Positions 2,096 through 7,229 of a DNA stretch of 7,229 nucleotides are shown here, one piece after another (positions within the stretch are counted from its first letter, which is position 1; each line of letters starts with the position of its first letter). Under the pieces are notes generated by a model, which searched no databases, was not told the DNA's origin, and saw nothing but the letters and a program-made list of their open reading frames with translations. The position numbers and the translations under genes are program-made. This stretch comes from a virus. The stretch is taken from the IMG/VR virus record IMGVR_UViG_3300008251_000119, one strand, 5' to 3'.

Positions 2096-3472
2096 TCACA
2101 ACTCAACATTCAAATCACCCTCTGAACTCTCAACAGACTCAACCTCAGAATATTTAACAGGAGCAAAAGGCACAAACTTGAAGCCTGAACCATCCGAAAC
2201 TTTCACAATAGATTCAGACAAATACTCCAACTTATACCCCATATTTACCAAATCATCACCCGAAACATAAAAATCATCACCATCGATTTTTAACACAAAT
2301 AAAAAACTATAAGTAATAGAACTGACAACCTCCACCAAACCACTAACAACCTTAAAAACTTTAGGTTTATAAGTCTTATTTATTGCAGTTAAATAAATAG
2401 AATCTGCATCAAAAGGAATCACTAAAGCACTAGGAGCTTTAAAAACAGCCTCAGAGCTAACATTACCATTAATAAAACCATTACTTTTTTGAACACCTTT
2501 AGAATCAACTTGAGCAGAAACTTGAACTTGACCATTAGATAATTGAACAGCTTGTACTTTTTCAACTGGTTTAGAACTAGAAGCGCTAGACGTACGAAAG
2601 AACACCACGTAAATAATAAAAACCGCAGCGGCAATAAAAACGGCAGAGCCAAGTAATAAAGACAAAGTAATAGGCGAGTTGCCAGCACCTGAATTTGTTG
2701 ATTGCCCTGTGGCAGTTGATTTATAGATTTTAAAGACATCAAGAGGAATTTTCCTAAAAGTTGTTATATCACCCTTTTTTACAGAATTACCATTAGAACT
2801 AGGCAAATGCTCAAGGACACGAGGACGGCGTTTAAAGTAAGGGATTGGGACAGAATCTTTAGAGCTATGAGCATAGGCAATCTCACAAACCGAGCGAATA
2901 AACCCCGCAACCTCTTTAATATCAGGAGTTGCCAACACAATATCCCAGTTAAAATGACGATGACGCATAAACGATTCACGCAAGGTCGGAGGGTATTTAA
3001 TATAATCACGTTCATCAAAAATACTTAAACCGATATCATCTTCATAATCTGCAATATTTACATTTTGCTTAATTACCCTTTGCTTTTCGTGGTACAGCTC
3101 AATAACGTCTTTGGGTAACTCACTATCAAAAAAACCCTCTTCTTTATAATCATAATCAGAAGCTTTAAAAGTTCTATCGTTTGGATAAATATCCTGAATT
3201 TCATCAATAAAGATAAAAGCCCCAATCGGCAACCAATGATAAAAACACCGCATAAGTTTACGACCCGTATCATTATTAGAAGATATACGAACTAATCGAG
3301 CTGAAGCAGGAAAAACAACATTTAACTCAGAAGAAATTTCTTCAAGCGTTTTTATGCCTTGAAGATTAGTAACAACTAAACGCCCTGCTTTTAAAGCTTC
3401 CAGTAATTCAAACCAACAAACAGTAGATGATTTATAGGAACCTGGTGGGCCGTGAAATATTTTAGTAGCCAT
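2096..3472 (-). CDS. zot: Zot-family / pI-like phage assembly ATPase (458 aa)
   Basis: It has an N-terminal Walker A (GPPGSYKS, aa 8-15), a Walker B-like FIFIDEIQ, and a single central TM (ITLSLLLGSAVFIAAAVFIIYVVFF) followed by a ~150-aa C-terminal domain. It sits right after the pVI-like gene, with SD GGTGG before the ATG. Confidence 0.9.
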   Translation of the reverse strand: MATKIFHGPPGSYKSSTVCWFELLEALKAGRLVVTNLQGIKTLEEISSELNVVFPASARLVRISSNNDTGRKLMRCFYHWLPIGAFIFIDEIQDIYPNDRTFKASDYDYKEEGFFDSELPKDVIELYHEKQRVIKQNVNIADYEDDIGLSIFDERDYIKYPPTLRESFMRHRHFNWDIVLATPDIKEVAGFIRSVCEIAYAHSSKDSVPIPYFKRRPRVLEHLPSSNGNSVKKGDITTFRKIPLDVFKIYKSTATGQSTNSGAGNSPITLSLLLGSAVFIAAAVFIIYVVFFRTSSASSSKPVEKVQAVQLSNGQVQVSAQVDSKGVQKSNGFINGNVSSEAVFKAPSALVIPFDADSIYLTAINKTYKPKVFKVVSGLVEVVSSITYSFLFVLKIDGDDFYVSGDDLVNMGYKLEYLSESIVKVSDGSGFKFVPFAPVKYSEVESVESSEGDLNVEL

Positions 3473-3475
3473 AAA

Positions 3476-3868
3476 TTACCACCCCATCATATCTAAAATA
3501 AATCGAGTCAATAAAGCCTCGATAACTAACTGAGCAGAATCAAAAAAACGAATATCAATTAAGGTTTGAACAATATCAGAATCTAAACGCCCTATAGACG
3601 AATTAATCAACTGAGTAATGTTTAAAGACTGCATAACTTCGATAGCAATAGAATAAGCAAATTCGGTAGTATGAATTAAAGTTGTAAACTTCAAAAGTAC
3701 GACATATTTAATAATATAAGCAAAAATACGACCAAAAAAAGCGGGTATATCTACTGAAATAAAAACCCAAATAGATTCAAAAATAGAACCTATTGTTGAA
3801 ATAAATTCAAAATCAGCAGCAAAAACAGTAGGCGAAAAAACAAGTGCTAATAAAATAAAATAACGCAT
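3476..3868 (-). CDS. pVI-like minor coat / Ace-position membrane protein, probably 130 aa starting at ATG 3868 (the track calls 3904)
   Basis: It lies between the pIII-like gene and zot. It has several hydrophobic segments. The ATG at 3868 has a strong SD (GAGGGAGAttttaaaATG) and sits 1 nt after the pIII stop, whereas the 3904 start would overlap pIII by 35 nt and has no SD. Confidence 0.65.
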   Translation of the reverse strand: MRYFILLALVFSPTVFAADFEFISTIGSIFESIWVFISVDIPAFFGRIFAYIIKYVVLLKFTTLIHTTEFAYSIAIEVMQSLNITQLINSSIGRLDSDIVQTLIDIRFFDSAQLVIEALLTRFILDMMGW

Positions 3869-3869
3869 T

Positions 3870-5648
3870 TTAAAATCTCCCTCTAAATAAAATTGATAGC
3901 GCAATAAATCCCGCTAAAGCAAAAACAATAGTGCCAATAGCCGGAAAGTATTCAGAGAACCTTGACCATGAAATATCATAACTTTGATTTTTAATTACAA
4001 GAGAATTACTCTTATAACCAGAAGAACTTGGGGAAAGTTGAAAAGCTAAAAGTAACTCTGATTTGTGATCGATAAGATTCTGCCTATACAGAGTTTTAGC
4101 ATTAGTAATTGCAGAATCTAAAGCTAATAGAGCGTTTTCATCAAAAAGACTGTTAAAAATAGAATTATCACGAACAACAAAAGAACCACTAACATTTTTA
4201 GCACTATTATCATTAATAGCATTAACAACCGCTTGCGTATCAACATTTTCACCATCAAGACCATTTAACCCTGCAATACCTTGAATTCCATCTAAACCAT
4301 TTGTACCATCACGGCCATCAACACCATTTGTACCATTTGTACCATTTATACCATCACGGCCATCTGCACCATCAGCACCTTTTTCACCATCTATACCCGC
4401 AATACCATCAGCACCTTTTTCACCATCTATACCCGCAATACCATCAGCACCTTTTTCACCATCTATACCCGCAATACCATCAGCACCTTTTTCACCATCT
4501 TTACCATCAATGCCTTTTCTATGAACAACTCTTGGGCCTTCAGGACAGTCCCAATAATCGATTCCTTTTAGTTCATCAACATGAGTAACAACACACTGCT
4601 TTTCTTTCCATTCTTGCCAAACTGAAAATAAATCTAAATCAGCATTCCCTCCACCCTCACAATTAATAGACCAGTGCAAAGTGCCATTATTAGACAATGA
4701 GCAGCTATCACCCTCAGCACCTTTCAAAGACAATTTTTCTGAATCCGTCAAATCAGAAAACCTTAACTTATCCCCTTTTAAACCTTGAATACCTTGAATA
4801 CCTTGGACACCTTGAGAACCCTGAGAACCATCTATACCCGCAATACCTTGGGAACCATCTATACCATTTGAACCATCACGACCATTAATTCCATTAATAC
4901 CATTTGAACCATTTGAACCATTTAAACCATCTATACCATTAGTACCATTTGTACCATCAATACCATTTGTACCATCAGCACCTTTTTCACCATTTGTACC
5001 ATCAGCACCTTTTTCACCATCTATACCATCAGCGCCTTTTTCACCATCTATACCATCAGCGCCTTTTTCACCATCTATACCATTAATACCATCAGCACCT
5101 TTTGCACCATTACTACCACGATAAAATGCCGTAGCCTCAGTTAGAGAACCAGATTGACCCGCACCAGAACCATCAGGAGGAGGTGGGGATTCGATAGATT
5201 GACAATCAAAACGCCAATTTAAAGGATCAGGAAATTCCCAATTAACAACGCGAGCAGAACCACAAGTTTCAAGCGAATAAGAAATACAAGAAGATTCACT
5301 ATTACATACTAAATTACATACAAAACTTGAACCGGAAGCATAACAATCATCGCCAACAGTAAAGGGCACACTCGTTATAATAGGGATAACAGACCCATTA
5401 TAATGATATAAAATAACAGGCACTTTTAATGATGTTCCTGATATGTAAGGATTACCATTAGTTTGATAACCATTGCGACCCCCTGCACACCTTTCTGATG
5501 AAGTGGCACCAGAGATCATAGATTCAGGAGTCGAATAAGCCCCTGAATTGATATAACACAATGTAGAATTGATAAACATTTCAGCGCGAGAATTAAAACT
5601 TAAAAACAAAAACGAAAATATAAAAACAAAATTAATATAATGCTTCAT
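3870..5648 (-). CDS. pIII-like adsorption/minor coat protein (592 aa) with two collagen-like Gly-X-Y domains
   Basis: It has a signal peptide (MKHYINFVFIFSFLFLSFNSRA/E) and a Cys-rich N-domain (8 Cys, aa ~24-150) ending in PPPPDGSGAG. Then come 39 GXY triplets (aa 178-294), a 4-Cys middle domain (aa 295-378) and 30 GXY triplets (aa 379-468). The C-terminal domain ends in a TM anchor plus basic tail (FPAIGTIVFALAGFIALSILFRGRF), like Ff pIII. The SD is GAGG, 8 nt upstream. Confidence 0.8.
   Translation of the reverse strand: MKHYINFVFIFSFLFLSFNSRAEMFINSTLCYINSGAYSTPESMISGATSSERCAGGRNGYQTNGNPYISGTSLKVPVILYHYNGSVIPIITSVPFTVGDDCYASGSSFVCNLVCNSESSCISYSLETCGSARVVNWEFPDPLNWRFDCQSIESPPPPDGSGAGQSGSLTEATAFYRGSNGAKGADGINGIDGEKGADGIDGEKGADGIDGEKGADGTNGEKGADGTNGIDGTNGTNGIDGLNGSNGSNGINGINGRDGSNGIDGSQGIAGIDGSQGSQGVQGIQGIQGLKGDKLRFSDLTDSEKLSLKGAEGDSCSLSNNGTLHWSINCEGGGNADLDLFSVWQEWKEKQCVVTHVDELKGIDYWDCPEGPRVVHRKGIDGKDGEKGADGIAGIDGEKGADGIAGIDGEKGADGIAGIDGEKGADGADGRDGINGTNGTNGVDGRDGTNGLDGIQGIAGLNGLDGENVDTQAVVNAINDNSAKNVSGSFVVRDNSIFNSLFDENALLALDSAITNAKTLYRQNLIDHKSELLLAFQLSPSSSGYKSNSLVIKNQSYDISWSRFSEYFPAIGTIVFALAGFIALSILFRGRF
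4368..4500. repeat. Perfect 36-bp tandem repeat, ~3.7 copies, in frame (12 codons, GEKGADGIAGID)
   Basis: The unit caccatctatacccgcaataccatcagcaccttttt occurs at 4385-4420, 4421-4456 and 4457-4492 with no mismatch, and partial copies flank these. Confidence 0.95.
4961..5103. repeat. 27-bp tandem repeat, ~5 copies (two identical, the others near-identical, the last with a 9-bp insertion), in frame (9 codons, GEKGADG-I/T-D/N)
   Basis: Units lie at 4961-4987, 4988-5014, 5015-5041, 5042-5068 and 5069-5103. Units 5015-5041 and 5042-5068 are identical (caccatctataccatcagcgccttttt). Confidence 0.9.
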
Positions 5649-5825: not shown

Positions 5826-5851
5826 AAAAAAAAAGCGCCTGTTAAGACGCT
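5826..5851 (-). terminator. Rho-independent terminator downstream of the major coat gene
   Basis: The minus strand reads agcgtc-ttaaca-ggcgct (a 6-bp stem including one G-U pair) followed by nine T (plus-strand A-run 5826-5834). This is the position of the strong terminator after gene VIII in Ff phages. Confidence 0.7.
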
Positions 5852-5921
5852 CTAATACCAGATGTAAATCCCTCTACCATGCAATAGTAAAGGGCAACCG
5901 CAAATAAAACGGTTGTAACCA

Positions 5922-6137
5922 TTAGCGCTTAAACCAACCAAGCATGTGACCAACACCAAAACCAAGAATAGCGAGACCAATAACAGCAGTAATTACAGCC
6001 GTCACATTTACACCACCTTCTGTACTAGCTGCCGTGATTTCCGTAGTGTAATCAGCAGCAAAAGCAGAACCAGAAGCAACAACAGAAGAAGCAACAACAC
6101 CCGCAGCAGCTAATTTATTTTTTAAAATATTTTTCAT
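5922..6137 (-). CDS. pVIII-like major coat protein precursor (71 aa; predicted mature 44 aa)
   Basis: The signal peptide MKNILKNKLAAAGVVASSVVASGSAFA/AD has an A-x-A cleavage site. The mature part has an acidic N-terminus (D, E, E), a hydrophobic core (VTAVITAVIGLAILGFGVG) and a basic C-terminus (GWFKR). A strong SD (AAGGAAatgtcATG) precedes it and a terminator follows it. Confidence 0.9.
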   Translation of the reverse strand: MKNILKNKLAAAGVVASSVVASGSAFAADYTTEITAASTEGGVNVTAVITAVIGLAILGFGVGHMLGWFKR

Positions 6138-6772: not shown

Positions 6773-7229
6773 TTACTCCAATACATGATCTATTAATTTT
6801 CGATAAGTGGGGGGTATACCCATCTTTCCGACTGTTTCTGTAACTTCATCAGGCAACAAATAACCTATAGCGGTTTCCATATCACCCCCCGAAAACTCCA
6901 ACAAATCAGCAAGCGCTTTACCCGCTGACCTCCTAAAATGTCTAACACGACTTATCAAATCTAAAGCCGCCTCTTGTGATTCAGACTTAAAACGAGTCAC
7001 AACACCTTTACAATCAGAAAGAGACTTTGAAAACTCATTCAAACCCGCAAAAACATCATCAACATTTAACAACGCATCTACTGACCACTTTTTCAATTCA
7101 ACTTCTGAGCGATACCAAGACAAAGAATCATCATCAATATTTTGCTCTAATTTCTTGTTATAAATACGCCAATAAATTTGGCTTGTTCTTTTTCCAACTC
7201 TCAACATTTCTTGAGAATAAATATGATTA
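6773..7229 (-). CDS. Same replication initiator gene, C-terminal part (stop TAA at 6775..6773); 7107-7229 duplicates 1-123
   Basis: The frame stays open from 7229 down to 6773. The track's start at 7207 (MLRVGKR...) is an internal Met with no convincing SD (tcaagaaATG). The region contains YWRIYNK, a candidate catalytic-Tyr block. Confidence 0.8.
   Translation of the reverse strand, partial: NHIYSQEMLRVGKRTSQIYWRIYNKKLEQNIDDDSLSWYRSEVELKKWSVDALLNVDDVFAGLNEFSKSLSDCKGVVTRFKSESQEAALDLISRVRHFRRSAGKALADLLEFSGGDMETAIGYLLPDEVTETVGKMGIPPTYRKLIDHVLE
7107..7229. repeat. Direct terminal repeat copy 2 (circular assembly overlap)
   Basis: Identical to 1-123. It lies inside the rep reading frame, so it duplicates coding sequence rather than being a biological repeat. 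Confidence 0.97.

Follow-up and report, generated by a model that had tools for sequence, protein, structure and literature searches.

The stretch of DNA analyzed here, called the window throughout, comprises the 7,229 nucleotides (nt) of IMG/VR virus record IMGVR_UViG_3300008251_000119. Our subject is a gene on its minus strand (3870..5648) that lies in the position of the adsorption protein pIII of filamentous phages (inoviruses) and whose product contains two long collagen-like arrays. The list of open reading frames (ORFs) and its translation give a complete coding sequence of 592 amino acids (aa) plus stop codon, and GAGG is located 9 nt 5' of the ATG. By direct reading of the translation, the protein starts with a signal-peptide-like N-terminus (aa 1-22, MKHYINFVFIFSFLFLSFNSRA; 5583..5648), and all orthologs start with an equivalent hydrophobic segment. 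Then follow, all on the minus strand, an N-terminal 8-Cys domain, presumed to be the receptor-binding head (aa 23-177; 5118..5582), a first collagen-like array (aa 178-294; 4767..5117), a middle segment delimited by its sequence features (aa 295-378; 4515..4766), a second array (aa 379-468; 4245..4514), and a C-terminal domain (aa 469-592; 3873..4244). Eight Cys residues fall within aa 31-149 and four within aa 316-368. The middle segment consists, in this order, of a 15-residue Gly-free insertion (LRFSDLTDSEKLSLK), two Gly-X-Y (GXY) triplets (GAE GDS), and a knob with the four Cys. The C-terminal domain is a putative virion anchor for which alignments A1 and A3 and an AlphaFold2 (AF2) model indicate helices, a beta-hairpin, and a transmembrane (TM) helix. 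The latter spans aa 568-588 (3885..3947, minus strand; helix 101-121 in the C-domain model) and is followed by RGRF. A first-pass annotation of the window had already described a signal-like N-terminus, a Cys-rich N-domain, a Cys-containing middle, and a C-terminal membrane helix, and the translation matches it.

A script run on the translation found exactly two runs with Gly at each third residue, 39 triplets in array 1 and 30 in array 2, without Pro and without interruption. These counts and boundaries are the same, to the base, as those first proposed. A succession of 39 in-register glycines cannot have arisen by chance. The collagen character of the arrays, also part of the first description, is borne out by Pfam Collagen (PF01391), which matches the protein with E 5.5e-34 (116 bits; cut-off 27.2), and the best PHROG matches are the collagen regions of tail fibers. 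The X positions are mostly Ile, Ala, Ser, Glu, or Thr and the Y positions mostly Asp, Asn, Lys, or Gln; the arrays are thus Pro-free as initially described, but they are not uniformly polar. Their net charges are -10 and -13. If triple-helical, array 1 would measure about 33 nm and array 2 about 26 nm.

At the DNA level, Tandem Repeats Finder places inside array 1 a 27-nt repeat (GIDGEKGAD unit; 4.5 copies, 96%; 4962..5083, minus strand) and inside array 2 a 36-nt repeat (GIDGEKGADGIA unit; 3.8 copies, 99%; 4368..4505, minus strand). All the periods that it reported are multiples of 9 nt. Beyond these near-perfect repeats, the remainder of both arrays is older and more degenerate. Because the arrays consist partly of near-perfect tandem repeats, assembly may have altered the exact copy numbers, and breaks at the arrays are seen in related metagenomic contigs. 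Two plus-strand ORFs rich in His, Tyr, and Leu lie opposite the arrays (4301..4588 and 4949..5086); we rejected them as genes and regard them as mirror-frame by-products of the ACC-rich repeat.

Repeats of this kind invite comparison with another glycine-rich fold, the Ca2+-binding beta-roll of RTX type. By inspection, the GEKGADGID nonapeptide overlays the motif GGxGxDxUx at G1, G4, D6, and the hydrophobic position 8. Asp and Asn are plentiful, and seawater is rich in Ca2+. Yet the second Gly of the motif is missing, HemolysinCabind (PF00353) gives no match at E <= 0.1, and the unit of array 2 has 12 residues (36 nt). Furthermore, most of both arrays has only a 3-residue periodicity, which is incompatible with a 9-residue beta-roll register. 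We thus consider a beta-roll extremely improbable.

Genomic position and homology of the C-terminal domain

The 592-aa ORF is the sole large ORF between the major-coat gene and the genes for the Ace/pVI-like protein and the Zot/pI ATPase. The order of this slot is the same in Vibrio phage VfO3K6, in CTXphi (cep-orfU-ace-zot), and in M13 (VIII-III-VI-I). The C-terminal domain provides a second line of evidence. In hhalign, its profile (alignment A3, 26 sequences) aligns with the C-terminal 91 residues of VfO3K6 Vpf504 at 94.7% probability (E 5.8e-8) and, weakly, with the last 31 residues of CTXphi pIII, i.e., OrfU (41.5%, E 2.7e-4). The pIII of CTXphi is experimentally defined. There is also a match of the protein to phrog_1698, annotated "receptor binding" (E 0.0055). 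The resemblance to Vpf504 (VfO3K6/f237, Versovirus) and OrfU goes beyond the coat - pIII - pVI/Ace - Zot slot, since these proteins also have a signal peptide, a Cys-containing N-terminal domain, and a helix-rich C-domain with a TM anchor. They differ from the window protein in their linkers, which are rich in Pro, Asp, and Glu, include helical segments, and have no Gly-X-Y arrays.

The relation to the pIII of the Ff phages (g3p) is different. The two are alike in functional layout, with a signal peptide, one or more N-terminal receptor domains (presumed in the window protein), a pair of spacers that contain Gly, and a C domain that, in the window protein, is predicted to combine helices, a hairpin, and a membrane helix. 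In the AF2 model of the window C-domain (pLDDT, the predicted local distance difference test, of 75), the elements are helices, a long helix, a beta-hairpin, a short helix, and the terminal TM helix; the C domain of f1 pIII has the same order of helices, beta-hairpin, and membrane helix (PMC10175506). However, the C-domain profile does not align with M13 g3p (hhalign probability 0.3%), a Pfam scan of the protein found no match to the g3p families, and Foldseek searches of the PDB with the AF2 models of the N-domain and the C-domain returned no match at E <= 0.001 and no g3p. For the N-domain the latter result is weak because the model is of low confidence (pLDDT 63). Hence, the first-pass likeness to Ff pIII does not extend to detectable homology, and we file the protein as pIII-type but outside the Ff g3p sequence family, given its slot and its homology to a vibriophage C-domain without any g3p match.

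The C-terminal 124 residues define a rare family. An exhaustive phmmer search of 1.84 billion representative proteins (E <= 0.001) gave 24 matches, 22 of which are credible relatives and 2 spurious RRM proteins. The C-domain alone gave no match in a word-indexed protein search, and a search with its profile A1 recovered five fragments and nothing else. Profile searches of PDB sequences produced only coiled-coil noise, and Pfam scans of the 26 C-domains no consistent family.

Could the gene instead be cargo that benefits the lysogen, encoding a membrane-anchored, collagen-like surface adhesin that is not part of the virion? The virion membership of the 592-aa protein is deduced only from synteny and homology, and a Colwellia ortholog is annotated by NCBI just as a hypothetical protein. 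Moreover, bacterial collagen-like proteins are often adhesins (PMC3368898). On the other hand, the ORF fills the pIII slot of a module that packs it closely with the pVI-like and Zot genes and offers no other candidate for adsorption or termination. Its C-domain is homologous to the pIII-slot protein of VfO3K6 and to array-free relatives in the same slot, and a C-terminal anchor in the inner membrane is unsuited to display on a Gram-negative surface. These data make an adhesin very improbable. The pIII-type assignment proposed in the first annotation had depended on a C-terminus with homologs among inoviruses. Such homology exists in the C-terminal end of Vpf504, and we hold with high confidence, from position and C-domain homology, that the 592-aa protein is of pIII type.

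Orthologs and their domain combinations

Zot-based searches identified relatives of the window in two prophages of Colwellia sp. RE-S-Sl-9, in a Colwellia metagenome-assembled genome, and in IMG/VR contigs. The closest Zot relative is that of locus L004 (73% identity) and the G+C content of the window is 29-41% (500-nt windows), from which we infer Colwellia, or a bacterium closely related to it, as the most likely host. The pIII slot contains arrays of 56 + 35 triplets in L004, 36 + 21 in L007, 30 + 11 + 7 in L001, and 32 + 11 + 7 in L003. It has no arrays in L002/L008, L005/L006/L012, and L010/L011. A search with the whole protein revealed further full-length orthologs (P0006, P0008, P0009, P0011, P0014, P0016, P0093, P0022, P0023, and P0055), and a metagenome scan added relatives on three contigs (L019, L020, and L021). 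A whole-protein search of IMG/VR for related loci gave no match. The survey of homologs suggested at first pass thus reveals that the arrays recur, within a small marine clade.

The three contigs from the metagenome scan begin or end inside the collagen arrays or just before them, and L021 has 99% identity over aa 1-163 before the contig ends. Since short-read assemblies break at the arrays, metagenomic protein catalogues probably contain too few genes of this type, or truncated versions of them.

Arrays and N-domain go together. In a local phmmer cross-tabulation, the window-type N-domain is shared by at least 15 proteins encoded in prophages of Colwellia or in marine metagenomes, and GXY arrays by 15/15 of them. 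This unit of N-domain and arrays is joined to one of two C-domains, that of the window (type A) or another one ending in LLLAFTWISA.VLYFRSL (type B), between which hhalign detects no relation. In the same cross-tabulation, type-A proteins without a match to the window N-domain have no arrays. Both types of C-domain occur in an inovirus context: the gene for P0022 (type B, L013) is followed by DUF2523, Zot, and secretin genes, and the 7.4-kb contig that encodes P0006 (L014) also carries Zot and a Rep_1 initiator. The type-B C-termini of P0022, P0023, and P0055 share the motif C-P-x(8-10)-G-S-x-V-x-F-S-Y-x-P-x-C-D-L-A followed by a TM helix, which recalls the Cys-bracketed beta-hairpin and M helix of Ff g3p (G-K-P-Y-E-F-S-I-D-C-D-K). 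The alignment of the type-B C-domain with M13 g3p in hhalign is not significant (E 0.27); its top alignment sets "FSY..CD" on "FSIDCD", which is a lead only. On L013, the strand opposite P0022 encodes a SEFIR/TIR_2-domain protein and a phage integrase (6365-8714), and the SEFIR/TIR_2 gene could be defense-type cargo of a filamentous prophage.

The domains of the protein appear to evolve at different rates. Relative to its closest full-length relative, L004, the window protein has 64.5% identity in the C-domain, 57% in the knob, and 25% in the N-domain, and this low value against 57-65% elsewhere fits a fast-evolving receptor-binding head. Still, seven of the eight Cys of the N-domain are invariant in 10 orthologs (alignment A2). 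The N-domain has no similarity to Vpf504, and its AF2 model has no fold match in the PDB. Its profile matches the first domain of P0134, an array-free type-A protein (hhalign 89%, E 2e-6), and because of this homology the arrays appear to replace the center of an older pIII architecture, one that, to judge from the sequences, appears to have consisted of a second Cys domain, an acidic linker, and helical repeats. Indeed, the array-free relatives P0128, P0129/L005, P0134, and L002/L008 share with the window the C-domain and the slot upstream of the pVI-like and Zot genes, but their central regions contain a second Cys domain, acidic or Thr-rich linkers, and helical or 11-mer repeats. In two of them (L002, 5843-7594; L008, 3594-5345) we observed four copies of a Cys-bracketed unit (CPTGQSLDSNGVCQDDVIQ) in the central region, together with about five copies of an 11-residue unit (LDDNSTSLLNK) that looks like a hendecad-type helical rod.

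The 4-Cys knob is conserved in L004, L019, P0008, P0023, and P0055, and we found no solved homolog of it. The core of the 15-residue insertion at the end of array 1 (FSDLT..EK..LKG) recurs between the GXY arrays of two non-inoviral collagen-like proteins, P0018 and P0109. The arrays themselves change in length. The pIII-slot proteins of L001 (5873-7588) and L003 (5855-7588), both on chromosome CP182631.1 of Colwellia sp. RE-S-Sl-9, are nearly identical outside array 1, where two separate one-triplet indels and three substitutions set them apart. Since the repeat periods are multiples of 9 nt, slippage alters the length of an array without loss of the frame or of the Gly register. If the arrays form a stalk, it would be a rapidly adjustable spacer.

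We found no precedent for such a protein. The exact sequence of the 592-aa protein has no record, the window has no megablast match among GenBank phages, and the N-domain is absent from all 50,697 GenBank phage records. A tblastn search of GenBank phages with the protein gave repeat-driven matches to tail fibers of tailed phages, with none of inovirus size among the 40 matches listed. A full-text literature search, whose reach largely excludes subscription journals, found no description of a collagen-like inovirus pIII, and collagen goes unmentioned in papers on the cold-marine inoviruses that infect Pseudoalteromonas and Alteromonas. The first annotation had allowed that collagen-like pIII proteins might already be common and well characterized; instead, the arrays recur in a small marine clade, and our searches of the literature and of GenBank phages turned up no such protein. 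Adsorption proteins of this class and collagen-like fiber motifs are each known, and what appears undescribed is that the two are joined on an inovirus tip in the form of a shuffled module.

Triple helix, tether, and the symmetry of the tip

Are the arrays collagen in structure as well as in sequence? Their composition was analyzed in 13 orthologs, whose 714 triplets contain 1428 X/Y positions. Only 2 of these positions are Gly, in contrast to 6.3% Gly outside the arrays, and Trp, Tyr, and Cys are absent. The two positions are strongly asymmetric: Asp is found 313 times at Y and 23 at X, Asn 161 times at Y and 3 at X, Ile 133 times at X and 13 at Y, and Glu 84 times at X and 2 at Y. The Gly register is unbroken across 20-56 triplets in diverged orthologs. 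The near absence of extra Gly and the strong X/Y asymmetry suggest a structural constraint, that of a triple helix, rather than a floppy linker. Given these patterns, we are fairly sure that the arrays are genuinely of collagen type and under structural constraint.

Several orthologs have further features compatible with trimers, with arrays that flank a segment of 70-90 residues poor in Gly and Pro. The 3.5-residue hydrophobic periodicity of these inter-array segments was compared with shuffled sequences (shuffle fraction 0.015 in L001, 0.002 in P0022, and 0.07 and 0.12 in two others). A precedent for such an architecture is EPclA, from a prophage of Escherichia coli O157, which combines collagen and coiled coil and was found by experiment to be a trimer (PMC3368898). 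Long unbroken Gly-X-Y arrays like those of the window are also found in streptococcal Scl2 and in the collagen-like minor tail or tail fiber families PHROGs 5073, 819, 6320, and 1806, which the window protein matches, and the arrays of phage and prophage fibers have small globular or coiled-coil modules beside or within them, as in the orthologs of the window protein. The similarity is limited to the repeats. EPclA-type fibers and Scl2 come from tailed phages or cell surfaces and lack an inovirus C-domain with a membrane anchor, and the arrays of the window are Pro-free and dominated by Asp and Asn at Y.

A pIII-type protein could also use its arrays as long acidic tethers, either unstructured or similar to polyproline II, that are resized by slippage and leave five independent chains per tip, as an equivalent of the Gly-rich linkers of Ff. 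The near-perfect 27- and 36-nt repeats are evidence of recent slippage, the net charges of the arrays fit an extended polyelectrolyte, and Pro-free sequences with Y positions rich in Asp and Asn predict a low helix stability. Tethers would also avoid any problem of symmetry, since the f1 tip has five pIII on flexible linkers (PMC10175506). Yet a tether needs neither a strict Gly at each third residue over 20-56 triplets in diverged orthologs, nor the exclusion of extra Gly, nor the asymmetry between X and Y. The motif shared with the inter-array regions of other collagen-like proteins and the coiled-coil-like segments between the arrays of several orthologs are also unexpected. Finally, known flexible linkers look different. 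Those of Ff are short and of GGGS type, the longer of the two spanning at most about 14.8 nm (PMC10175506), whereas the window protein has 117 + 90 residues of strict Gly-X-Y. In Propionibacterium phage B5, a filamentous phage of Gram-positive bacteria, the pIII-position protein is Orf6. This phage has reportedly been described as carrying a collagen-like motif, but the in-register glycines of Orf6 extend over nine GGX triplets only and form a Gly-rich linker in an otherwise unrelated protein; we rejected it as a collagen-type array. Flexible tethers are therefore unlikely in our assessment, although they deserve serious consideration.

The best explanation, which we favor with moderate confidence, is a pIII-type tip protein with a trimeric collagen stalk. 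Under this model, the 592-aa protein would be responsible for adsorption and the termination of assembly in a Colwellia-type marine inovirus. The signal peptide would export it and the C-terminal helix would hold it in the inner membrane, as in other pIII proteins. Judging from synteny and C-domain homology, the C-terminal domain and the pVI/Ace-like protein would then mediate its incorporation at the trailing end of the virion. The ancestral central region would have been replaced by two Gly-X-Y arrays split by a small disulfide knob, and three chains would zip into Pro-free triple helices with the lengths calculated above. The result could be one thin segmented stalk, resembling a tail fiber, that holds three 8-Cys N-domains about 60 nm ahead of the filament end. 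Slippage of repeats of 9n nucleotides would resize this stalk in whole triplets.

A number of observations weigh against this model and should be considered with care. No similarity to Ff g3p is detectable in sequence or fold, and the association of the protein with the virion is deduced from synteny and homology. Recognized trimerization domains were not identified in the window protein, whose Cys knob lacks a heptad signal (0.19), as does the start of the C domain (0.86). The positional bias of the arrays could partly stem from repeat amplification instead of selection. Stabilizing imino acids are missing, with no Pro in either array of the window. On the host-guest stability scale attributed to Persikov et al. 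2000, Asp and Asn are reportedly among the least stabilizing Y residues, and a rough host-guest score is about 27 for the window compared with about 35 for Scl2. Yet Colwellia grows at near-zero temperatures. A marginally stable helix may be adequate for the phage of a psychrophile, and the low predicted stability of the Asp/Asn-rich triplets would then be tolerable. On balance, the sequence data make an actual triple-helical stalk reasonably probable.

The last difficulty is one of symmetry. The tip of f1, and hence that of Ff, is a pentamer, with a five-fold cap built from pIII and pVI, each in five copies (PMC10175506). With five pIII in the cap, three-chain helices cannot use all the chains, so that a three-chain stalk would imply leftover chains or another stoichiometry. 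Possible solutions are a tip with a different stoichiometry, the zipping of only three chains, or arrays that do not trimerize. Our literature search surfaced no tip structure other than that of Ff. We regard a non-pentameric tip in these phages as conceivable but rather doubtful. Equally tentative is a broader scenario, in which the pIII of this group of marine inoviruses would form collagen-zipped trimers, with three or six chains per tip, or with three of five zipped and two left over. The stalk of about 60 nm and the N-domain would then be a host-range cassette that moves between lineages with different anchors and replication modules, and whose length is tuned by triplet slippage, for example to reach through the exopolymer of cold-marine hosts.

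These alternatives have different consequences. To our knowledge, what is known of how filamentous phages find and enter cells comes entirely from Ff and CTXphi, with monomeric receptor domains, short flexible linkers, and a five-fold tip. If the model is right, the roughly 200 residues of strict collagen repeat in this pIII would imply different mechanics, with a stiff, multivalent, and length-adjustable stalk of a kind otherwise seen in the fibers of tailed phages. Since no tip can place all of its chains both in three-chain helices and in a five-fold cap, the finding makes the generality of the pentameric Ff tip among inoviruses testable. A naturally trimeric, rod-like pIII could also become a new display scaffold, and Pro-free, cold-adapted collagen sequences are of interest for the design of recombinant collagen. 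Should the arrays prove to be floppy tethers, what remains is one marine clade whose linkers have an unusual composition.

Other features of the window

The genes on the minus strand are ordered as follows: a Rep_trans replication initiator, a DUF1293/phrog_1410 single-stranded DNA-binding protein, an 84-aa ORF (phrog_969), the major coat protein, a hairpin, the 592-aa ORF, the Ace/pVI-like protein, and Zot/pI. The initiator (6773-7229, Rep_trans/phrog_453) is represented by its C-terminal third, matching profile positions 288-433 of 447, and its frame stays open to the edge of the window. No matching N-terminal part was found at the opposite end of the window, which indicates that the window covers only part of a longer prophage or contig and is not a complete circular genome. 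The major coat gene (5922..6137) encodes a precursor of 71 aa that matches phrog_1859 (E 1.6e-18) and, weakly, Phage_Coat_B. Between this gene and the pIII-like gene there is a terminator-like hairpin with a T-run (5832..5853, minus strand; one found in a consensus scan against 0.4 expected), which we liken to the arrangement in Ff, where a terminator lies between the coat gene and gene III. On the other side of the 592-aa ORF, the pVI/Ace-like minor coat gene (3476..3868, minus strand) begins 1 nt past the stop codon; it matches phrog_306, "Ace-like" (E 4.4e-19), and weakly DUF2523. The Zot/pI assembly ATPase gene follows (2096..3472, minus strand), with a Pfam Zot match at E 1.9e-44 and 33% identity to Vpf461 of VfO3K6. 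Downstream of Zot there are two small divergent ORFs that match families of unknown function, one on the minus strand (842-1036; phrog_2419, E 1.9e-12) and one on the plus strand (1171-1359; phrog_5219, E 1.4e-16). Their arrangement recalls the regulatory region of other vibriophage-like inoviruses.

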